Shown here one piece after another: positions 9,279 through 31,937 of a DNA stretch of 45,147 bases. The translations under genes were made by a program, and so were the position numbers. Origin of the DNA: a virus; IMG/VR virus record IMGVR_UViG_3300010311_000419; one strand, given 5' to 3'. Each line of letters opens with the position of its first letter. The stretch's first letter is position 1. The notes beneath the pieces were generated by a model that saw nothing but the letters and a program-made list of their open reading frames with translations, was not told the DNA's origin and searched no databases.

Positions 9279-10195
9279 TTCACCTCCACGCCGGCGAACG
9301 TTTTAGCCAGCTTGTCAATGTCTACCCCTTTAGGCGCTTCTTCGGAATCGGATAATCCTACGTAGCGTTTCGTCGGGACGGTTGTCGATGTTTCGAGGAT
9401 TGATTCGAAGAACTTCTCTTGATTAGGATCCTCGACCAGTTTATCTGCCAGCATCTTCACAAGCGCGGGGGCCTTGCTCTTCGCGAGCCAGCCGTCGCGC
9501 CATTGCTGCACGTGCATCGTGTGTTTCTCTTTTTGCATTGTTTCCAGATCATCGATGAGCTTCTTGATCTGGCCGTCTTTCTCTTTGATCTGCTCTTCGA
9601 ATTGCTTGGTAAGCGTTTCCTCTAACTGTTTGTTTTGCGTTTTCAAGGCTGCGAGTTCTTCTTCGTAGCGCTTGACAACAGCAAAATCGTTCGCGTTTTC
9701 TGCCATTCTCTTAGCTCCTTTGTCGTTGTTTCCATAGGCCGTCTCTATGTCAATCTCTACATTCCAGGTTATCAAGTTGTGTTCTCCATCCGCGTCTGTT
9801 AGCGTGATACGTTGCATTCCGGGTTGTGCCGGGATAGGCGTCAGCGATATCTCCAAAAGTGTTGGCCCTTCCTCTTGCCCGGTCGTCTTGTTGATATAGT
9901 TGTCGTGATAGGCAGGGCTCAAGAAGTCATACCGGCCGCTTTTGATTAGCTTCTCACCTTCCGAAGTGAACTCGATATCCGCGGCGAGCCCCTCATCTTT
10001 TATCCGCAATGCCTTAATCTCCCCGTACTTGCCACCTTTGCTCTCGTGAGACAGAAGTACTGGTATCGGATACGGCACAATCTTCCGGTCGAGATTCTTC
10101 TTGAGTTGTTCCGCGATTCTCTTCGAGTGTTCAACCCTGCCGTATCGAGAATCGTAGAAGGTTTGGAAAGGCAGGATCAGAACTTCTTTTGTCAC
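9275..10195 (-). CDS. Putative capsid scaffold / maturation protein
   Basis: 306 aa with a long charged coiled-coil C-terminal half (EELAALKTQNKQLEETLTKQFEEQIKEKDGQIKKL), upstream of capsid genes. Confidence 0.45.
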   Translation of the reverse strand: MTKEVLILPFQTFYDSRYGRVEHSKRIAEQLKKNLDRKIVPYPIPVLLSHESKGGKYGEIKALRIKDEGLAADIEFTSEGEKLIKSGRYDFLSPAYHDNYINKTTGQEEGPTLLEISLTPIPAQPGMQRITLTDADGEHNLITWNVEIDIETAYGNNDKGAKRMAENANDFAVVKRYEEELAALKTQNKQLEETLTKQFEEQIKEKDGQIKKLIDDLETMQKEKHTMHVQQWRDGWLAKSKAPALVKMLADKLVEDPNQEKFFESILETSTTVPTKRYVGLSDSEEAPKGVDIDKLAKTFAGVEVK

Positions 10196-12360
10196 ACCGT
10201 TTTCACCTCCTGTGATTCGGTTAATAGGTTTGCAATTATGTCTTTGATCGCGTTCAATTGCGCTTCTTCCCCATGTTCCTCGGCGTGTTTACGGTATCCT
10301 TCGCTGTCGTACTGGTTGCTTAGGATCATCCGCACGGCCTCGTCTACGGTGTTGTACAGGTATTCCTCGGGATACACGTCGGTTGCTCCCCAGAAGTGAT
10401 GGATGATCGGTTTAATTCCTTTGCTCTCCGCTTCGAGGATTGCCATGCCGGTCCCTTCGGTGTAGGATGTCGAGAGGAAATAGTTCTTATCTTCGAGGAA
10501 GGCGTTCATGTCTTTTTGATGCCCTACGAAGTGGATGTTACGTTCCAGCCCAAGCTGTGTGATGATGTGTTTGAGGTATTGCCAGAGCCGGATGTCTTGG
10601 AGTTCGCCAGCCCAGAATAACTCGTATCCGGGATCCAACCGCGCGAGCTGGTTCATTATCTGCACCATCATCATCGGGTTCTTCAGCGCGTTGATATGCC
10701 CGGCGAATGCGATCTTGTATCCGGTCCCGTGGTTACCGTAGCTGAATCGTTTGGTATCCACGCCCATCGGCACGAGAGCGACTTTATCCGCAGGCACGAT
10801 CTCTTTCGCCAGCTCATAGATATGATCCGCTTCGAACATCACACAATCGGCGTTGTTGTAGTTGATTTGTTTCAGGAATCCGTTGTAAGCCTCGTAAGCG
10901 TGTACGCGGATGATGGTCTTCTTTGCCGGATACTTGTTTGTCCCGGCGATCGCGAGTTCGTTTCCGAATTCGTACCAAACGAGATCGGCCCAGTCGATGT
11001 ACTGCTTCGCGTGTTCGATGTCACTTACCACCGCCGTCTGCACGATATAATCCCGCGCGAGTTCGTGTCGCACGCCGTGGAGGAATGAAGCGAGGCCCGG
11101 CGCGACGATGATTGCGATCTTCTTGCGTTTGGTAGCCATCTCATGATTGGCTTCACCGTACAACCGAGAGTAGTAAGGCGAGAGATTGATCCGTTCGTGA
11201 TCGGCGAGCTTAAGAATAGCCGGTTCGAAGCGTTTTAAGACATTTGCGTGTTGCGTTTGCGCGAGTGTTCTTATCAATTCATCCGCCGCCCACGTCGTGA
11301 TCGTCGTGGCCTTCACATCCCGCAGAATCACGAGCGCCCTGTCGATCATCCCCGTCTCCGCTGCCGCCTTGGCGCCGATGATCAGCGCAACGTCGTGATA
11401 CTTCTCGTATTGAAGCGTGAACAGACACCCGCTCTTGTTGAACGCCGCTACCTTTGCCGTGTACGTCTCAAAGGCTTTTAAGGCGTTAAGCGGCTGCTTG
11501 AGCGCGTTAAACATCAACTCCTCAACGATGTAAGAGTCCGGGCAATCAGGAGCCATTGACCGCGCCGCCGAGATGCACGCTCTGATGATGTCTTGTTCGT
11601 TGTATTCGAGCGCTTGCAACCCGAGAAGCACGAAGATGTCGTGCATCATTACGGGGATGGCCTTCGTCATTCTTACTTCCGAAAGCAACGCCTTGCCGTA
11701 CGTATAGGCTTCTTCTTTCTGCTCACACACGAGAAGCGTTTTGTAGTATTGCGCCTTGTAGTAGAGCCGCTCCATCCCGCTGAGTGTGTCGCCTTGGAGT
11801 ATCTTTTCCATCATCGACAGGAGCCGCTTGCGCTTCTTCTCTCTGAGCTCCGGCGTCCACTGATAACCGTAATGGTTTGATATCAGGTTCGTGGTGATGG
11901 TCTCTTGTTCATATTGCGGATGGTTATGCACCGCATACTTGTAGGAGATTGTGCCGCGGCGGAATATTCGAGGGAGTGTGAGCGAGTCTTGGAGTGTGTC
12001 CGTGATGATGTTGCGCGTAATCATCATAACCGTCTTAACTTCCGGTGGCTGAGATTCAAGCAATGGCCGGAGTTCTTTTTGCGCCTCTTCCGTAAGTTCT
12101 TCATCGCCGTCGTAGATGAACACCCAGTCGCCCACACATAAAGCGATCGATGCGTTCCTGGCCTCACTGAAATCTTCTTTCCATTCGTGGTCATACAGTT
12201 TGATCTTTTGATCGTTGAACCCGATGATGATCTCTTTTGTCCGATCAGCAGAACCGGTATCAAGTATCACTATCTCATCCGCGATTGGTAGAACGCTTCG
12301 GAGCGCTCTTTCTATGTTCTTCTCCTCGTCCCGTACTATCATTGCAACGCTAACTAACAT
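10192..12360 (-). CDS. Two-domain glycosyltransferase (N-terminal GT-A/family-2-like, C-terminal GT-B/family-4-like)
   Basis: N-terminus MIVRDEEKNIERAL..ILDTGSAD and YDGDEEL (DxD-type); C-terminus FVGHQKD...EGTGMAILEA resembles the GT4 E-x7-E region; 722 aa. Confidence 0.65.
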   Translation of the reverse strand: MLVSVAMIVRDEEKNIERALRSVLPIADEIVILDTGSADRTKEIIIGFNDQKIKLYDHEWKEDFSEARNASIALCVGDWVFIYDGDEELTEEAQKELRPLLESQPPEVKTVMMITRNIITDTLQDSLTLPRIFRRGTISYKYAVHNHPQYEQETITTNLISNHYGYQWTPELREKKRKRLLSMMEKILQGDTLSGMERLYYKAQYYKTLLVCEQKEEAYTYGKALLSEVRMTKAIPVMMHDIFVLLGLQALEYNEQDIIRACISAARSMAPDCPDSYIVEELMFNALKQPLNALKAFETYTAKVAAFNKSGCLFTLQYEKYHDVALIIGAKAAAETGMIDRALVILRDVKATTITTWAADELIRTLAQTQHANVLKRFEPAILKLADHERINLSPYYSRLYGEANHEMATKRKKIAIIVAPGLASFLHGVRHELARDYIVQTAVVSDIEHAKQYIDWADLVWYEFGNELAIAGTNKYPAKKTIIRVHAYEAYNGFLKQINYNNADCVMFEADHIYELAKEIVPADKVALVPMGVDTKRFSYGNHGTGYKIAFAGHINALKNPMMMVQIMNQLARLDPGYELFWAGELQDIRLWQYLKHIITQLGLERNIHFVGHQKDMNAFLEDKNYFLSTSYTEGTGMAILEAESKGIKPIIHHFWGATDVYPEEYLYNTVDEAVRMILSNQYDSEGYRKHAEEHGEEAQLNAIKDIIANLLTESQEVKTV

Positions 12361-12365
12361 CTTTT

Positions 12366-13271
12366 TTATGCTCCTTTCGCATAGATTCTCGCGGATTCGA
12401 AGAGCGGCGCACAGTAGCGCAGCATCTCCTCGCGAGGGATAGATGGTACACGGATAAAACTCGGCAATTGGTTGTTTAGATAACTGGAGGCAACCGTCAT
12501 GAAGTAGTTACGCAGGTATTCCGCACGGTTAATCGTTGCATTTCGCGGCATATACACGCTGTCCTCAAAATGATCGACGATATATCGAAGGATCGCGTTG
12601 ATCGCTCGAATGCGCCGTTCAATCCCGTGCGTATGGCTTGATTTGTGTATGCGATAGTGGCGGAATGGTTTGTTGATCGCTTTGGTACGCAAGCCCATTC
12701 GAAGATAGTGCATGGTGTTGATCGTGTCCACGTCGCATCCGAGATACTTGATATAACCGCGGCGCTTTAAGAAGGACGCTCTCATCAATCCTTTCGAAGA
12801 GATCACACTCGACCCGTGCCGTTCGAAGGTTCGCCGTACCGCGTCTTTCGCTTCATAATCCTCAACCGGCCACATCTCCGTCGAGCGGCCGTCTTCGTAA
12901 TGCACGCAGCAACCTGAGTACACGTAATCTATCCGCGGATCAGATTCGATCAGCTTCACCGATTCCGCTATCGTGTCCGGTTCGAGCCAGTCGTCCGCGT
13001 CGTAGAAGTAAATGTACTTGCCTTTCGCCTCTTCTATCATTCGATTTGTGCCTTCCAACACGCGGCCCGAGTTCATATCCGATCGAATGATCTTAATGCG
13101 ATCGGCATAACGGTTCAGCACATCGCCGGATTCGTCGGTCGAGCAGTCGTCGTACACAATGATCTCGAGATTGCGGTGTGTCTGGTCAAGCATCGAATCG
13201 ATGCACCGTGCGAGATACCGCCCGTAGTTGTAGTTATTGATCCCGACCGTGACTAACGGCGCCGTTTCCAT
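12366..13271 (-). CDS. Family-2-like glycosyltransferase
   Basis: VGINNYNYGRYLARCIDSMLDQT...IIVYDDCSTDES and YFYDADD motifs typical of GT-A fold. Confidence 0.65.
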   Translation of the reverse strand: METAPLVTVGINNYNYGRYLARCIDSMLDQTHRNLEIIVYDDCSTDESGDVLNRYADRIKIIRSDMNSGRVLEGTNRMIEEAKGKYIYFYDADDWLEPDTIAESVKLIESDPRIDYVYSGCCVHYEDGRSTEMWPVEDYEAKDAVRRTFERHGSSVISSKGLMRASFLKRRGYIKYLGCDVDTINTMHYLRMGLRTKAINKPFRHYRIHKSSHTHGIERRIRAINAILRYIVDHFEDSVYMPRNATINRAEYLRNYFMTVASSYLNNQLPSFIRVPSIPREEMLRYCAPLFESARIYAKGA

Positions 13272-17058: not shown

Positions 17059-18216
17059 TTACTCTCTGGTTGCTTTCCTCCCTGCGAAATCTTCCCACCG
17101 CTTTACGATCACGTCGCAATACCCTGCATCAAGTTCCATCATGTAGCACTTGCGATTGAGCTGCTCGCAAGCGATGAGTGTTGAGCCGGAGCCGCCGAAG
17201 GGGTCAAGCACCAGCGTGTTGCTCATGGAGCTGTTCATAATGGGGTACGCCAAAAGCGGGATGGGCTTCATGGTTGGGTGATCGCCGTTTTTCTTAGGCT
17301 TGTCGAACTCCCAGATGGTGGTTTCCTTGCGTCCGCTGTACCACTGGTGCTTGCCGCTTTTCTTCCAGCCGTATAGCACAGGCTCATGCTGCCACTGATA
17401 CGGGGAGCGCCCCAGCACCAGCGACTGCTTTTTCCAGATACAGCAGCCGGACAAATAAAAACCGGCATCCGAAAAGGCTCTCCTGAAATTCAGCCCTTCG
17501 ATGTCGGAATGAAAAACATATATGCTGGCGTCGTCTGCCATGACTGCTTCGGTATTCTGGAACGCTGCCAACAGGAAGCTGTAAAAAGCATCGTTTGCCA
17601 TGTTGTCGTTCTTGATTTTCCCGGCACTGCCTTCATAGTTCACATTGTAGGGCGGGTCGGTCACGACCAGATTCGCCTTCTTGCCATCCATCAACCGCTC
17701 CACATCTTCACGCTTCGTACTATTTCCACAAAGCAAGCGGTGATCGCCAAGTATCCACAAGTCGCCGGCCTTGGTAATTGGTTCTTCCGGTGTCTCGGGC
17801 ACATCGTCCTCGTCCGTCAAACCGGTGTTCATATCCAAATCCATGCCAAAATCCGCTAAGTCAAATCCCAAAGCTTTGAGCTCCGACAACTCCCACTCGT
17901 TCGCCAACATGTCAAAATCCCAATCGCCCGCCATGCCACGTGGAGCATTATCCACAAGGATGAATCGCTTGCGTTGCTCCGCCGTTAGATTAGATGCCTT
18001 GACGATCCAACCGTCCGGGACATCTTTCATACCCAGCTCTTTGATTGCGCGATACCTCATATTGCCGCCGAGTATAATACCTTCATCATCAACAACTATT
18101 GGGCGGAGCGTCATAAACTCCGGATCACGTTTGATTGATTCGCACAATTTTTTGAACGCTTCATCCTTAATTATTCTTGGGTTCTTCGAATTAGCTTTGA
18201 TGTCGGATAAATTCAT
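17059..18216 (-). CDS. ParB-like nuclease domain fused to DNA methyltransferase (N6-A / N4-C class)
   Basis: N-terminal ParB-like segment; VTDPPYN (motif IV) and DPFGGSGST (motif I); GGAGG RBS. Confidence 0.8.
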   Translation of the reverse strand: MNLSDIKANSKNPRIIKDEAFKKLCESIKRDPEFMTLRPIVVDDEGIILGGNMRYRAIKELGMKDVPDGWIVKASNLTAEQRKRFILVDNAPRGMAGDWDFDMLANEWELSELKALGFDLADFGMDLDMNTGLTDEDDVPETPEEPITKAGDLWILGDHRLLCGNSTKREDVERLMDGKKANLVVTDPPYNVNYEGSAGKIKNDNMANDAFYSFLLAAFQNTEAVMADDASIYVFHSDIEGLNFRRAFSDAGFYLSGCCIWKKQSLVLGRSPYQWQHEPVLYGWKKSGKHQWYSGRKETTIWEFDKPKKNGDHPTMKPIPLLAYPIMNSSMSNTLVLDPFGGSGSTLIACEQLNRKCYMMELDAGYCDVIVKRWEDFAGRKATRE

Positions 18217-19651: not shown

Positions 19652-20743
19652 TCACACCTCCGTGGATCGAATCGGCATTATGTAATGCGAGGCGTTGCCA
19701 TCTTCCAACCGCATAATCTCCGCTGGCGTGCCAAGCCGTATTGTCAGATCGCTGCTTTTAACGTGTTGCGCGGATTCCAGGAAGTAGTCTGGGTTATATG
19801 CGATTTTCAACGCCGGCCCTTCAAACGCGCACGGGACAGATACGTTCATTGCGCCTTTGCCGGTAGAACGCGCGGTGAACACGAGTTCTTTGTTTGCTAC
19901 ACTCATCAACACGCTTTCCTTTGCCTCAGCGGTAACCACGCGGGCGAACTTGACAGTCTTTATCAGCGCGTCACGGTCTACGGTTACGGTTGTTTTGTGC
20001 ATTGCGCCAATCACGCGCCGATAATCTGGATATTGGAGATCGAGCTTGCGGATGATAACCTTGGTGTCCGGAGATTCTATCCCGAACGAGGTGATATTAT
20101 TGTATAACCTCACGAGCGCCGGATAGCGCTTCAGGAATGAGAGGAATATTTTCGCCCCGCCAAGTGGTATCGTGAACGCCTCGATGTCCGGGATTGGTTG
20201 CGCGGTGTCGATTGTCGCAAGCCTGAACCCGTCCGCCGTGACGAACCGGAGATGGCCGCCAACGCTTTCGAAGTGTAGCCCGTTCAACGCGCGCATCATT
20301 GGATCGGCGGCTATCGCATAGATAACGCGGTCAATCTCGCTTGAGAGTGTCGGGATGAGTTCGATCGGTTCAGCCGTTGAATCGAATATCAGCGCCGGAA
20401 AGTCTTCTGGGTCGAGCATTGGGATGTTTGCGACTCCGCCGTTGCTGTACACGTCAAGCGTCGCTTCGTTTTCTTGCTTGATGTTCAGCTGAGCGCTCGG
20501 CGCGTTTTTGGCGATCTCAAAGAGCGTCTTGGCGTCCACGGCGGTCTTGCCCGGCGATTGCGCGCTCGCCCCTTCGAGTTTGATCCGTATCGATGTTTCC
20601 ATATCCGTTGCGTACAGGTATACGGCATCACTGCATTCGATCAGCACGCTTGATAGGATCGGCTTAATCGCCTTTGCCGGCGCAACGGATACAATGTTCG
20701 TCATCGCATTTTCGAGAGTTTTCTTGTCAACTGTAAATTCCAT
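19652..20743 (-). CDS. dnaN: DNA polymerase III beta sliding clamp
   Basis: ~363 aa; NGLHFE...FVTADGFRLA-type clamp motifs; GGAGGGG RBS before ATG at 20743. Confidence 0.75.
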   Translation of the reverse strand: MEFTVDKKTLENAMTNIVSVAPAKAIKPILSSVLIECSDAVYLYATDMETSIRIKLEGASAQSPGKTAVDAKTLFEIAKNAPSAQLNIKQENEATLDVYSNGGVANIPMLDPEDFPALIFDSTAEPIELIPTLSSEIDRVIYAIAADPMMRALNGLHFESVGGHLRFVTADGFRLATIDTAQPIPDIEAFTIPLGGAKIFLSFLKRYPALVRLYNNITSFGIESPDTKVIIRKLDLQYPDYRRVIGAMHKTTVTVDRDALIKTVKFARVVTAEAKESVLMSVANKELVFTARSTGKGAMNVSVPCAFEGPALKIAYNPDYFLESAQHVKSSDLTIRLGTPAEIMRLEDGNASHYIMPIRSTEV

Positions 20744-20964
20744 AGTCCCCTCCAATGTAGTTTTCGATTTTAAGGCTGTTTTTAGCCCCTACGGGCGACG
20801 TTCGGGTTGAGTTGCGAGTGTTTTGTCACGGCGGATTTTATCGCGCGTTTTGGGGCCGTTTAACGCGTTTTGCTCTTCGTCATCCCCGGATGCCCGAAGC
20901 AACGCCGCGATAATCATGCCGATCGGCGCGCCGATGAATATGCCGATGAGGATGCCGGCGAGCA

Positions 20965-27649: not shown

Positions 27650-29005
27650 TCAAATTTGTTTTTCTTCTGTTTGTATTTTTTCTGATTTTCTGTTAAAGTT
27701 TATTTTCAAAATAGAACGCTGCCAACCATCGCCGTGTTGAAGCATTAGTGCCTTTTTAGTGCTACAACTTATTTCCTTCCCATTTTTATCCCTGATATGA
27801 ACTGTTCCGGCGCTTTTCACCGCGATTGCGCGTCCGGTTATGCCTTTGACTTTTACAAAATCGCCAGTCATGAATCCTTCTTTGGTCTTGTTGCGACTGC
27901 GATGACCTCTTGCAAAGCCATGTTTGTCCGGTATAATCGTTTGTCTGTTTCCACGGCCCATTATCTTGTTTATTGTTGCGTATTGTGTTTTAACATCAAT
28001 GTGCTTATCGCACAAACCAACACAAGCAGCATCAAAATAATGTTCTTTTGGCAACCCTTGATTGTGCCTGTTGAATTTCGTTCTCCCGCCAGAAGCGAGC
28101 TCAACGTCTCCAAATTCCTCTTTGAGCTTGTTGCATAAAACCCATCGGGTTGTGTTTACGCTTGCAGCATCTTTAAGGGTCTGTTTTGCGTCCTTTATCG
28201 CCTTTTCGAAATTTGCGATCATGGTTTTGGCTTTATCGCCTTTTTGTTTTGATAAGTATTCTATATATTCTTTCGGCATCATATTGGACTTCTCTTGATT
28301 GCATTTAACGCAAGCGATTGCGAGATTATCAATGCGGTCCGTGCCGCCTTTGCTTTTCGGAATCATGTGTTCAATTTCAAGAGGAACTTTTTCAGCACCA
28401 CAATAAGCGCATTTCCTACCGTATTTTTCGAGCAAGTATTCTTTCACTTCATACCCGAATAACTTTCCATGTTGATATTCAACGCCAGACACTTCGGGGT
28501 TTGCTAACTTTTGCATATCGAACTTCACGTGTTCAACTGATACAATTTGAATAGGCGCTAATGACTTCATTTTTCTAACTAAGTTAAGAGTTGAGTATAC
28601 TCTTGAAAGCATAGAGGGTGCGAAACGCCCTTTCTTTGTGCTGTTTTTTCTATTGGCCCAACGAGCTGGTCGATACCGTGTGTTTCTGTTTCTGCGGCCA
28701 CGGCGCATTTGCGACCTGTGTTTAAGGTTATCCGCGACCGTTATTTTATGCTTCACTATTCCGGCATAACGTAAAAGTAATTTGTCTTCTTTCTCTTGAA
28801 TAACAGCGATTCCTGTTTCTTTACTTCCGGGATCAATCTTTATTTGTAATGGCTCAACCTTACAATCCTCAACTTCGTTTTTTAGGCGAATCGTAAACGG
28901 AGTGTATTTGTGTATAACTGCTTTTTTGTTTTCGAGTAACTTTCTTGCTCTCTTCTCGGAGCAAGGCATCAAAGGTTCTTTGTGTTTGTTAAGTACGAAT
29001 ACCAT
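27650..29005 (-). CDS. iscB: IscB-type RNA-guided nuclease (PLMP, RuvC-I, bridge helix, HNH, RuvC-III)
   Basis: MVFVLNKHKEPLMP start; IKIDPGSKETGIAV; RSQMRRGRRNRNTRYRPARW; CAYCGAEKVPLEIEHMIPKSKGGTDRIDNLAIACVKCNQEK; KEHYFDAACVG; ~451 aa; AAGGAG RBS. Track start at 29071 rejected. Confidence 0.8.
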   Translation of the reverse strand: MVFVLNKHKEPLMPCSEKRARKLLENKKAVIHKYTPFTIRLKNEVEDCKVEPLQIKIDPGSKETGIAVIQEKEDKLLLRYAGIVKHKITVADNLKHRSQMRRGRRNRNTRYRPARWANRKNSTKKGRFAPSMLSRVYSTLNLVRKMKSLAPIQIVSVEHVKFDMQKLANPEVSGVEYQHGKLFGYEVKEYLLEKYGRKCAYCGAEKVPLEIEHMIPKSKGGTDRIDNLAIACVKCNQEKSNMMPKEYIEYLSKQKGDKAKTMIANFEKAIKDAKQTLKDAASVNTTRWVLCNKLKEEFGDVELASGGRTKFNRHNQGLPKEHYFDAACVGLCDKHIDVKTQYATINKIMGRGNRQTIIPDKHGFARGHRSRNKTKEGFMTGDFVKVKGITGRAIAVKSAGTVHIRDKNGKEISCSTKKALMLQHGDGWQRSILKINFNRKSEKIQTEEKQI

Positions 29006-29351
29006 ACAGGTATCACTCCTTTTATTTACAGCCCGAAGGCTTGCGCTTACGCGCCTTGTAACGCGAGGCATATGCCTCGTCTCTCCTCGACAATGTTATA
29101 ATGCCTTTTTACGAGCCAATCACTTGCGTACCTTCCGTGTTTACAATCGCATGTTTAGACTGGTTCGACAGAGCAGCCGGCTGGAGAAGCACCTGCTGGT
29201 GTCATGAGCAAAATAACGTAGGTCTCTAAGACCTTAGTCTGGACCCGCTTTGTAAATAGATAAGTTACAAACCGCTACACATAAGGTAAAATTAATCCGT
29301 GATTTATGTTACAGCCAAAAAGCAGCGGGCTTGAATGGCTTAACTCAACGG
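29006..29351 (-). ncRNA. Candidate omega-RNA / tracr-like scaffold for IscB
   Basis: Non-coding ~350 nt between array and iscB; consecutive hairpins including CGAGGC-AUAU-GCCUCG, GCGC-GUAA-GCGC (GNRA) and AGCC-UUCG-GGCU (UNCG); 29256-29264 is the exact reverse complement of 9 nt of the array repeat. Boundaries approximate. Confidence 0.5.
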
Positions 29352-29516
29352 GTTGCACCTTATCTATGGTTGGGGCGGGACGTATGTTACGGCGAAGATC
29401 TTTGTATCGACGACGTGCGTTGCACCTTATCTATGGTTGGGGCGGGACAATGGTTAGGCCGTTCCTGGAGTCGATCAGGGATTTTAGTTGCACCTTATCT
29501 ATGGTTGTGGCGGGAC
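29352..29516 (-). CRISPR. Mini CRISPR-like array: three 30-bp repeats, two spacers (37 and 38 bp)
   Basis: Repeats at 29352-29381, 29419-29448, 29487-29516 (third has one mismatch); plus-strand repeat GTTGCACCTTATCTATGGTTGGGGCGGGAC; spacers GTATGTTACGGCGAAGATCTTTGTATCGACGACGTGC and AATGGTTAGGCCGTTCCTGGAGTCGATCAGGGATTTTAG. Strand inferred from iscB. Confidence 0.7.
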
Positions 29517-29866
29517 GACAAGTTATTGTATGATCCCGGCTCGAGGTTATGGCGCTCGGTGCTTGTCAGTGAGCTGGCTGAATCTAAAGAGTAAGAGTAA
29601 GTTATCGTTTGGACGTATCGATTATACCTCAAAAGCATAAAAAAGCAAGCGGCGATTATACAAGAAAAAGCGAGATATACTTAATATGTATATCCCGCCT
29701 GTGTGTAGCGTAATCAGAAGATTCGATGCGGTTATTGTTGGTTTCAATCGTAATGAGAAATCGGCTTTATTTCGCGTTAAAGGCTGAATTCAAGGGGTTT
29801 GGAAGAATTTGCCCATTAACGATACACCACGTGCCGTTTTCAGGCTTCAGGGGTTTGAAATCTTAG

Positions 29867-30454
29867 TTATTCTTTTGATCGGGCTGTAACAAAAGCAGGC
29901 GTTGAAACTTCGCACGAAACAGAACAATTATTCGCGTACCGGTAAGATGGATTTCTGCTCGAGAGATCGCGCAATGCCTTTTGTTGCTCAGATGTGAGGT
30001 GAAATAAAGTAATCATGTTTGAAATCGGGAAGTATATGATCTTGGCACCGCTAAATTCGATGGATGGATAATCTTTTTCTTGGTCTCTCACCCTTATGGA
30101 TACAGGTATTTCCAAGTTTCGCAAATAGTTGCCGTATGCCTCGCCCTTGCCTTCATCTACAAACACAAGAAATACTGGGATGTTGTACTTTTCTGATATA
30201 GTCTTGTACTGGATGTAATGTTTAAAGTCGATACCTTGATCTGGATACATTTGCCGTCTTGCCTTACTCTTCACGTCCAGAATCAGCAAATCTTTCTTGT
30301 CTGGAGATGCCAGAATCCGGTCAAACGGATGAGCACCCGGCCATACTGGTTCGTATGGGATCATTTTCTTTCTGCTTTTGATATACTCATCCACCAATAG
30401 CTCTCCAAAATCACCTTTCTTGGTTTGAATTTTCTCGCGAAAAAGTTTAATCAT
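29867..30454 (-). CDS. PD-(D/E)xK-family nuclease (restriction-endonuclease-like), putative
   Basis: GDFGELLV ... PFDRIL ... LILDVKSK matches E / D / (D/E)xK spacing; ATG at 30454 is 5 nt after the upstream stop. Confidence 0.45.
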   Translation of the reverse strand: MIKLFREKIQTKKGDFGELLVDEYIKSRKKMIPYEPVWPGAHPFDRILASPDKKDLLILDVKSKARRQMYPDQGIDFKHYIQYKTISEKYNIPVFLVFVDEGKGEAYGNYLRNLEIPVSIRVRDQEKDYPSIEFSGAKIIYFPISNMITLFHLTSEQQKALRDLSSRNPSYRYANNCSVSCEVSTPAFVTARSKE

Positions 30455-31937
30455 GACACACATCACCAAGCTTTCGCAAGAAATCGGAGCTGTACTTATC
30501 CTCCTTCTCAAATCCAATAAAATAGCGTTTACATTTTGCGGCCGCCAGTAACGTGGAACCTGAACCGGCAAACGGGTCGAGAACCACTTCACCAGAACTG
30601 CTGGAGTTTTTGATTAGATATTCCAATAAAGGCTCCGGCTTCTGGCAATCGTGAACCTTATCTTGCGGGATAGCAAACTCAAGCACGTCGGGAGAAACGG
30701 GGTTGTTCAATTTTCGTTCTTTCCCGTTTGGCATCGTGCAGAACCAGATAATCTCATACTTGGAGGCATACCGTGCTTTGAAATCACACGGCGTGTGGTT
30801 ATTCTTCACCCAAGTGAGCCAGTTATCATGTACTTCAAAGTGTTTGGAGAGGATTCTTTTGAACTCGAAAGCATTTACGCAGCCGCAAAAAACGTAGATA
30901 TGAGCGTTTTCCTTGCATACCCGTTTCAACTCAACGCACAGATCATCGAAATACTCCAAGATACCCAACGAATCATCAAACTCAGGGTTGCCAGTTCTCC
31001 GGGAGGATTTGAAATCCACCCCATAAGGCGGGTCGGTGATCACAACATCAACTTCGTTATCAGATAATGATTTGATACCTTCCAAAGCATCCACACCAAA
31101 CTTGGCCTTGTTTTTCACTCCTTCGTTGAGCTGCTTGATAACGGATTCCAACCTTTTATCGCTGTACTCACCTTTGTGAATTGCCTCGAACAACTCAGCT
31201 TTCTTCTCATCCGAGATCTCCGGAGAAAGTTGCTCTTCCATCATTTTGAGCTGGCTGCGGATGCCTTTGTAGTATTCAACCTTTTCGTCCAGTTTTTTCT
31301 TGGCAGCTTTGCATCTCTCTTCTACGCAAAACCATACCATCACTTTCATCTGGTCATCCGCTTCTAATTCATACAATCCTGACGTCCGAAACCACCCCTC
31401 GGTGAAATCGCACGTTGTAATACCGCGTTCATTTTTTGGTGCAAATGTACCAAAGTTTGGTACACGGCCCTCCTGAAAAGTTTTGGCCAAAATCAGAATC
31501 TCTGCACCAATTTTTGAACGCAATGTTACGTGATTTTTTACTTTTTCCCGGCTCCACCCAATCCGCTCGCCGATCTTCTCTTGCGTGGTCCCATCATCTT
31601 GGAGCTTTGCGATCAAATCGAGCCAATCAAACAAATCCATCGGCGAGTAGGTGTCCTCGTCTTGGTTCCCGTTTATGGCGAGGGCATAGGGATCGTGGCC
31701 TTCCTCATACACAACGCACGGGACCTTATCGATGTTTAGTTCTTTAATCACGGCAAACCGATGATTGCCGTCCGCGATCAAGAATGAACCGTTGCTCTTG
31801 ACGACCGAAAGCGGGCGAGCCGGATTATAGCCGGATTCCGTGATCCGTTTCTTTATCTTCTCCAACGTGCTCGGCCGGATATCTCGAACCGGAAATGGTT
31901 TTAATCTTGTTACTTCGATCAATTCAGTAGCGTACAT
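30447..31937 (-). CDS. ParB-like (DGQHR-like) domain fused to DNA methyltransferase; paralog of 17059..18216
   Basis: N-terminal LIADGNHRFAV; VITDPPYGV (motif IV) and LDPFAGSGST (motif I); 496 aa. Confidence 0.8.
   Translation of the reverse strand: MYATELIEVTRLKPFPVRDIRPSTLEKIKKRITESGYNPARPLSVVKSNGSFLIADGNHRFAVIKELNIDKVPCVVYEEGHDPYALAINGNQDEDTYSPMDLFDWLDLIAKLQDDGTTQEKIGERIGWSREKVKNHVTLRSKIGAEILILAKTFQEGRVPNFGTFAPKNERGITTCDFTEGWFRTSGLYELEADDQMKVMVWFCVEERCKAAKKKLDEKVEYYKGIRSQLKMMEEQLSPEISDEKKAELFEAIHKGEYSDKRLESVIKQLNEGVKNKAKFGVDALEGIKSLSDNEVDVVITDPPYGVDFKSSRRTGNPEFDDSLGILEYFDDLCVELKRVCKENAHIYVFCGCVNAFEFKRILSKHFEVHDNWLTWVKNNHTPCDFKARYASKYEIIWFCTMPNGKERKLNNPVSPDVLEFAIPQDKVHDCQKPEPLLEYLIKNSSSSGEVVLDPFAGSGSTLLAAAKCKRYFIGFEKEDKYSSDFLRKLGDVCHD

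Follow-up and report, generated by a model that had tools for sequence, protein, structure and literature searches.

The window analysed here, a 45,147-nucleotide stretch of viral DNA, is a 45-kb phage, and several samples yield contigs of about that length. Its structural genes encode a terminase, a Mu-type portal, Mu F-like and Mu protein I-like proteins, capsid E, a tail tube protein and a protein of the minor-tail or tape-measure type, and its other phage genes include RecT/YqaJ, RusA, SSB, a DnaN-like clamp, a cI/Cro-type HTH pair and a serine recombinase fragment. Two glycosyltransferases within the structural module, a second ParB-methylase and the DnaN-like sliding clamp lie at 10192-13271, 17059-18216 and 19652-20755. 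The subject of this report is iscB and the DNA just upstream of it, whose neighbours encode a ParB-methylase, cI/Cro-type HTH proteins and YqaJ/RecT. Cas1, Cas2 and Cas4 had no Pfam match in the 44 window ORFs, and neither did TnpA, the Y1 transposase, nor does any of them suggest an IS200/IS605 setting; the 44 ORFs scanned make up nearly all of the window's ORFs of at least 100 aa, and a lone Cas2-sized ORF of less than 100 aa would fall outside the scan.

Read along the minus strand, the locus consists of a leader, three repeats with two spacers, a stretch of 81 nt, the segment TTGTAACTTATCTAT (29270-29256), a structured region, a set of hairpins, the Shine-Dalgarno sequence AAGGAG and the iscB start codon at ATG 29005. 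The original prediction had read the hairpins, the ribosome-binding region, the iscB start, the array and a complementarity between repeat and scaffold from the DNA, and all of them lie at the positions claimed. The features are as follows.

29517..29700, minus strand: leader of the array, from the sequence and a terminator scan.
29700-29668, minus strand, inside the leader: terminator-like hairpin serving the upstream gene, from the terminator scan.
29660-29655 and 29626-29621, minus strand, inside the leader: two perfect -10 boxes (TATAAT), spotted by eye.
29487..29516, minus strand: repeat 1, GTCCCGCCACAACCATAGATAAGGTGCAAC, a C9A variant whose change falls in the unpaired internal loop, from the repeat finder.
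29449..29486, minus strand: spacer 1, 38 nt, a variant of the "anchor" spacer ...AACGGCCTAACCATT.
29419..29448, minus strand: repeat 2, from the repeat finder.
29382..29418, minus strand: spacer 2, 37 nt, from reading of the array.
29352..29381, minus strand: repeat 3, the last, 28/30 nt identical to L047 7525-7554, which the HEARO model matches from its position 1 on.
29271..29351, minus strand: linker of 81 nt from the last repeat to the anti-repeat, an insertion relative to single-guide relatives.
29243..29270, minus strand: anti-repeat, with helix 2 at 29270-29256, a 7-nt internal loop at 29255-29249 and the P1 3' strand GCGGGU at 29248-29243.
29076..29330, minus strand: match to HEARO (RF02033), the core of the omega RNA scaffold, covariance model positions 1-211.
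29030..29079, minus strand: three 3' hairpins, with compensatory changes in the alignment.
27650..29005, minus strand: iscB, 451 aa, from HMM matches, with the Shine-Dalgarno sequence AAGGAG at 29021-29016.

The array comprises three 30-nt repeats of the pattern GTCCCGCC[A/C]CAACCATAGATAAGGTGCAAC (repeat finder), is co-oriented with the omega RNA and iscB, and ends 22 nt upstream of the HEARO match. The 3' end of spacer 2 abuts the last repeat and lies where a canonical omega RNA has its guide. The anchor spacer, of which spacer 1 is a variant, adjoins the omega RNA in most B-lineage arrays. We infer that the leader holds the promoter of the array; a consensus promoter scan called zero minus-strand promoters and did not pick out this one, because its -35 box is weak.

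The product of iscB scores 390.7 bits against the NCBIfam equivalog guided_IscB (NF040563; cutoff 175), and it also matches the Pfam families RRXRR and HNH. The RuvC domain is split by an inserted HNH, the PLMP motif occupies residues 11-14, and an alignment to OgeuIscB places the catalytic residues D58, E158, H213, H322 and D325 within its RuvC and HNH motifs. With both the RuvC and the HNH site complete, the enzyme is predicted to be catalytically intact. Models of Cas9 and Cas9d stay far under their cutoffs (TIGR01865, 30.4 against 100; NF049971, 52.2 against 375). Where does the protein begin? The frame is open in the window for a further 22 codons, up to 29071, and the original prediction held that this extension, which reads through the hairpins, is better explained as RNA. 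The RRXRR (Pfam) and NCBIfam IscB models begin at the internal methionine, and the start is therefore ATG 29005 and not 29071; moreover, a stop codon closes the frame of the extension in an 81%-identical relative. The explanation has thus held up, and the 22 N-terminal codons are best annotated as RNA, not protein.

The structured region had been proposed to be an omega RNA, a claim that the covariance-model search bears out. HEARO, the established IscB guide (omega) RNA (PMC9755519), matches the minus strand from 29330 to 29076 over the full length of the Rfam model (RF02033, positions 1-211), with 96.5 bits against a gathering score of 83 (E = 1e-18). The match ends at 29076, and iscB starts directly downstream on the same strand, at 29005. 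RNA folding, which the original prediction had also proposed as a check, was applied at two scales. A fold of the native stretch from spacer to anti-repeat produces the pairing between repeat and anti-repeat described below; all 353 nt together fold with an energy no better than that of shuffles (z = -0.91). It is therefore the covariance model and the covariation, and not thermodynamics, that support a structure.

Three hairpins close the region on the minus strand: H1 (CGAGGCATATGCCTCG, 29079..29064), H2 (GCGC-GTAA-GCGC, with a GNRA loop, 29054..29043) and H3 (AGCC-TTCG-GGCT, with a UUCG loop, 29041..29030). They are kept across lineages, and in the 3'-hairpin alignment 7 of 11 consensus pairs are backed by compensatory changes. 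The clear ones are in H1 and H2, the foot pair of H1, for example, being C-G in lineage A and U-A in lineage B; H3 gives just two pairs with one double change each, because of a one-column misalignment. The three hairpins that had been noticed from the letters alone are accordingly real; they lie mostly beyond the Rfam model, and in relatives the last of them is terminator-like. Indeed, a U-run follows H3 in relatives, including omega RNAs with no iscB downstream, and the RNA probably has its 3' end at H3. The U-run behind H3 is broken in the window, which would allow read-through into iscB. Near-identical stand-alone omega RNAs at four other loci (L038, L042, L047 and L053) end in H3 and U6 with no iscB ORF behind them, and those of L047 and L053 start with one repeat-like 5' arm.

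How is the array connected to the scaffold? The plus-strand segment 29256-29270 (ATAGATAAGTTACAA) is complementary to 3/3 repeats, with 13/15 Watson-Crick pairs and one G-U, just as had been claimed, and the repeat finder extends the anti-repeat match against the last repeat to 19 nt at 84%. The 15-nt segment is only a part of the pairing, which is longer than originally described and also joins GUCCCGC, at the 5' end of the repeat, to GCGGGU (29248-29243) across a 7x7 internal loop. The computed energy of the repeat:scaffold duplex, -23.3 kcal/mol, was reached by 0/500 shuffled repeats. When 20 nt of spacer, the last repeat, the linker and the anti-repeat are folded together, the minimum-energy structure contains the long-range pairing in lineages A, B and C.

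The meaning of this duplex becomes apparent from the single-guide relatives, in which the HEARO model begins exactly at GUCCCGCC, the sequence of the repeat. The array-less loci L047, L053, L041 and L038 carry an ordinary omega RNA whose first 30 nt are 28/30 identical to the window repeat. In the last repeat itself the P1 5' strand GUCCCGC comes first, followed by a 7-nt loop and then by the first hairpin's 5' arm, which reaches to the palindromic apex of that hairpin, GTTGCAAC. Judged by these alignments, the 30-nt repeat is the first 30 nt (the 5' end) of a canonical omega RNA, and 29270-29243 is its 3' arm. As the repeat is the 5' end, 29351-29271 is an inserted linker and not core scaffold. 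The original prediction of a scaffold spanning 29006-29351 was right in identifying an omega RNA; its span takes in this linker.

In the array-bearing lineages, then, a linker of about 80 nt parts the two halves of the stem. Rfam sees no P1 5' strand downstream of the last repeat in lineage B, so the repeat must supply P1. For the window lineage it assigns that strand to GCCCGCUG (29330-29323, in the linker), at a low posterior probability. The stretch 29381-29375 of the last repeat is homologous to the P1 5' strand of the single-guide relatives and is also the partner in the minimum-energy fold; GCCCGCUG is a second candidate in the linker of this lineage and could compete with the repeat. 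Part of the anti-repeat is an insertion relative to the HEARO consensus.

A duplex with a P1 of 5-7 bp, a 7x7 loop and a helix 2 is common to lineages A, A2, A3 and B. Helix 2 measures 13-16 bp in A, A2 and B and is weaker in A3, where the anti-repeat and its own repeat form 11/15 pairs in helix 2 (by hand) and 11/16 over repeat positions 15-30. Across the lineages tested, between 0 and 4 of 500 shuffled repeats reached the observed duplex energy. Between A and B, four pairs have changed on both sides and are still paired (A-U to G-C, U-A, G-C, C-G). Lineage C has an unrelated repeat sequence that is again complementary to the anti-repeat, along with a scaffold that contains an extra hairpin. 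In B and C no other combination is as stable as the cognate duplex, whose lead is about 8 kcal/mol or more; the closely related A-type lineages have overlapping duplex energies, and the A3 repeat forms stronger duplexes with the A and B scaffolds than with its own. On these comparisons, the repeat and anti-repeat have co-varied between lineages. The covariation and the complementarity on which the original prediction had been staked are thus both present in the relatives.

The linker is 69% identical between lineages A and B. We infer that it is made up of a fossil spacer (29351-29331), a degenerate terminal repeat, GCCCGCTGCTTTTTGGCTGTAAC (29330-29308), and a loop. The layout of its start (29308-29351, with CCGTTGAGTTAAGCCATTCAA and then GCCCGCTGCTTTTTGGCTGTAAC) is kept in lineages A, A2, A3 and B. 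The idea that the pseudo-guide at 29349-29331 is aimed at the phage's own genome was rejected, as the window holds no second site at three or fewer mismatches. A likeness of spacer 3' ends to the linker was taken as chance, since it is not shared by other spacers.

The junction between array-bearing and single-guide forms can be located precisely. Locus L047 consists of an A3-lineage repeat fused to an A3-type anti-repeat (as in L069) exactly at the 7-nt direct repeat TTGCAAC. A recent derivation of the array from a single-guide ancestor is only one of two possible directions, because distant arrays in Poribacteria already have repeats ending in GTTGCAAC. Short arrays also occur in other IscB lineages (L049, L050, L055, L063, L065 and L057), where the repeat equals the P1 5' strand plus the first hairpin. 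At these six loci the repeat either has another palindrome, GTATATAC, at its end or is complementary to itself; the differing repeat ends imply that the point at which the omega RNA is split varies by lineage.

Related loci were collected from contigs encoding close homologues, from a metagenome scan with the conserved scaffold motif, and from GTDB genomes; in IMG/VR, no relatives were found by protein, repeat or conserved scaffold motif, and no similar DNA was found in cultured phages. The order array, linker, scaffold and iscB recurs, with the same orientation, in phage lineages A, B and C and on Poribacteria chromosomes. The chromosomal Poribacteria loci (L003 and L005) encode IscBs of 557-602 aa with the array about 1000 to 430 nt upstream. 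Their arrays have at least 8-11 repeats of 30 nt, ending in GTTGCAAC, with spacers of 36-38 nt; the linker and anti-repeat are present, the neighbours are housekeeping genes, and no other cas genes, cas1 and cas2 included, lie within 3 kb. The arrays of these distant IscBs mean that the association is old and not confined to phages.

Within the phages, the module behaves differently from its surroundings. When window 27650-29700 is compared with L016/L017, the array-scaffold-iscB module is about 75% identical between A and B (iscB itself 74%), compared with about 95% for the flanks and 97.9% for the leader, which suggests cassette exchange or fast evolution at the module. The same or a related IscB module lies beside Mom, an RNA ligase and DUF932 in L008 (JBJSVZ010008651.1), and beside NUDIX and an SNF2 helicase in L026; in view of these different neighbours, the module must move between phage backbones.

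The spacers change much faster than the scaffold beside them. Ten contigs encode a 100% identical IscB and show 0-1 differences in the 346-nt omega RNA region, and the six of the ten that reach past the last repeat have four different spacer sets; several other contigs end exactly at the last repeat. In all, lineages A to C contain 36 unique spacers, mostly of 35-40 nt, with two shorter ones (20 and 22 nt). Arrays of lineage B have up to 12 repeats, and in 10/11 of them the scaffold-proximal spacer is the anchor (two as a truncated 20-nt form), with distal spacers that vary. In lineage A the spacer order differs between contigs, which suggests recombination rather than ordered addition. The truncated anchor, ACAAATCCCTGATCGACTCC, is followed directly by a repeat in the arrays of L018 and L024, and the nine-repeat arrays contain two copies of a spacer block, CATCGG...; these features point to deletions and duplications inside the arrays.

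What do the spacers match? Two spacers from the arrays of sibling phages, sp07 and sp08, match overlapping sites at window 31508-31453 (32/38 and 28/37), inside the ParB-N6/N4 methylase gene (30447-31937). The matches contain 6 and 9 mismatches and are thus imperfect, so that the real targets would be diverged relatives. This methylase gene seems to be a preferred target in conflict between related phages. No exact protospacer was found when 34/36 spacers, concatenated, were searched against INPHARED, and the two window spacers and a degenerate anchor-spacer pattern found no target in IMG/VR.

Taken together, the evidence leaves us fairly confident that the stretch serves a phage-borne, CRISPR-associated IscB nuclease as its guide-RNA locus. 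A minus-strand transcript would run from the conserved leader through the repeats and spacers, the linker and the omega scaffold, and would either stop at H3 or read through into iscB. The single anti-repeat (29270-29243) is predicted, from sequence, covariation and folding, to join a repeat and so form P1, the 7x7 loop and a 13-16-bp helix. A repeat paired in this manner would put the 3' end of the adjoining spacer exactly at the guide position of a canonical omega RNA. The last repeat can pair in cis, within the same molecule. The upstream spacer-repeat units would need free scaffold molecules as partners, or an alternative fold, in the manner of crRNA and tracrRNA. The scaffold would thus act like a tracrRNA, certainly within the molecule for the last unit and probably between molecules for the upstream ones. 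By analogy with the function of the family, IscB would then cleave double-stranded DNA at sites matched by the guide and flanked by a target-adjacent motif. Spacer content and the two spacer matches point to a role in attack on related, competing phages.

Is the whole array put to use? Considering that the cis fold of the scaffold-adjacent unit is the most stable predicted structure, and that the published DelIscB work used one fused guide RNA (PMC12660989), one could argue that this unit alone works, as one single-guide omega RNA. The upstream units would then be silent cassettes, activated by recombination between repeats, and the spacer order in lineage A does suggest recombination and not ordered addition. 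Against this argument, the repeats are uniform at all array positions (31/31 identical in B and 14/16 in A, where the sole variant falls in the unpaired loop), and the conservation of the proximal anchor beside variable distal spacers in lineage B would be odd if only the proximal spacer acts. We regard it as unlikely, on balance, that a single unit is all that functions. Evidence bearing on the possible use of several spacers by the CRISPR-associated IscB proposed here comes from those uniform repeats, from the co-evolution of repeat and anti-repeat, from spacer turnover beside an invariant scaffold, from the spacers that point at related phages, and from the sister loci whose repeat and anti-repeat are joined into an ordinary single-guide hairpin at the 7-nt junction.

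Repeats of 30 nt with spacers of 36-38 nt are typical of arrays built by Cas1-Cas2, and the array seen here fits that description. It might accordingly be a mini-array for a host CRISPR-Cas system, borrowing the host Cas proteins and lying beside an ordinary IscB omega RNA by chance; no adaptation gene was found among the 44 ORFs scanned, so outside machinery would in any case be needed for spacer uptake. This reading is highly improbable given that the repeat makes up the omega RNA's own 5' end, that it co-varies with the adjacent anti-repeat, and that phage lineages A, B and C share the locus order and orientation with Poribacteria that have no other cas genes within 3 kb. Finally, it is scarcely credible that the stretch is a structured mRNA leader that regulates only the translation or stability of iscB, with the repeats as inert duplications: the hairpins do lie immediately upstream of the ribosome-binding site, and the Shine-Dalgarno sequence is inside the third hairpin in the array-less L029 and L030, but HEARO is established as the IscB guide RNA (PMC9755519), and spacer turnover beside an invariant scaffold is unexpected for inert duplications.

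The reading as a phage-borne CRISPR-associated IscB locus invites a further and more doubtful proposal, namely that phage IscB arrays are truly adaptive and, jointly, that the family switches back and forth between a single-guide form and a split, crRNA/tracrRNA-like form. We consider this combination possible, with the odds against it. The arrays may acquire 35-40-nt spacers from competing phages, in a phage with no cas1-cas2 match among the ORFs scanned; if they do, either host adaptation enzymes are borrowed for a repeat derived from an omega RNA, or a mechanism not yet known is at work. Switching between the forms may proceed via recombination at the palindromic hairpin apex (TTGCAAC), and the family would then be a living intermediate between the omega RNA and the pair of crRNA and tracrRNA.

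CRISPR-associated IscBs are rare and are viewed as a bridge from the transposon OMEGA nucleases to Cas9; the published members are not known to have adaptation genes nearby. The locus described here resembles this family in its co-oriented array directly upstream, in its lack of nearby adaptation genes (among the ORFs scanned), in about 60 nt of extra 3' stem-loops, and in one noncoding RNA that would combine spacer, repeat, long hairpin top, anti-repeat and omega scaffold. The existence of CRISPR-associated IscB was already known (Altae-Tran 2021, as summarised in PMC11610941). A later description is that of DelIscB in 2025, with a guide RNA formed by repeat and anti-repeat and a 102-nt hairpin top that could be replaced by GAAA (PMC12660989); by this published description, DelIscB has 457 aa, compared with 451 aa here, and its dispensable top of 102 nt compares with an equivalent of 103 nt. 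The splitting of array RNA into crRNA-like and tracrRNA-like parts for the use of several spacers was left untested in that work, and the system described here differs from DelIscB and KraIscB-1, to which it is likened by description and not by sequence, in being carried by a 45-kb phage.

The locus has its core scaffold and pseudoknot region in common with the canonical omega RNA or HEARO systems (OgeuIscB, MG35-1), and its RNA, like theirs, lies upstream of iscB on the same strand. Here, however, an 81-nt linker splits the first stem, the 5' half of which occurs in three copies with different spacers. Unlike the OMEGA systems of IS200/IS605 elements, the locus has no TnpA match in the 44 ORFs, and its neighbours are phage genes. 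As in type II systems with Cas9, a repeat:anti-repeat duplex would set the spacer 5' of the scaffold, and the effector combines RuvC and HNH. However, the effector is of IscB size and lacks the REC lobe, the anti-repeat lies on the transcription unit of the array, and no scanned ORF matches cas1, cas2 or csn2. Judged by these tests, the locus is neither a type II system nor an IS200/IS605 element.

Virus-borne mini-CRISPR arrays and phage-encoded CRISPR systems serve in conflicts between viruses. The mini-arrays are similar to the present case in that a short array sits in a viral genome and contains spacers that match relatives of the carrier; here, however, the phage brings its own effector and scaffold, and the repeat is derived from that scaffold instead of copying a host repeat. 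The phage-borne IscB system is likely to be a weapon against other phages. Beyond the published family, its added interest lies in its carriage by a phage, in natural spacer turnover without adaptation genes among the ORFs scanned, in apparent targets in related phages, and in an exact junction to single-guide relatives. It also offers a compact nuclease of 451 aa, probably multiplexable, for testing.
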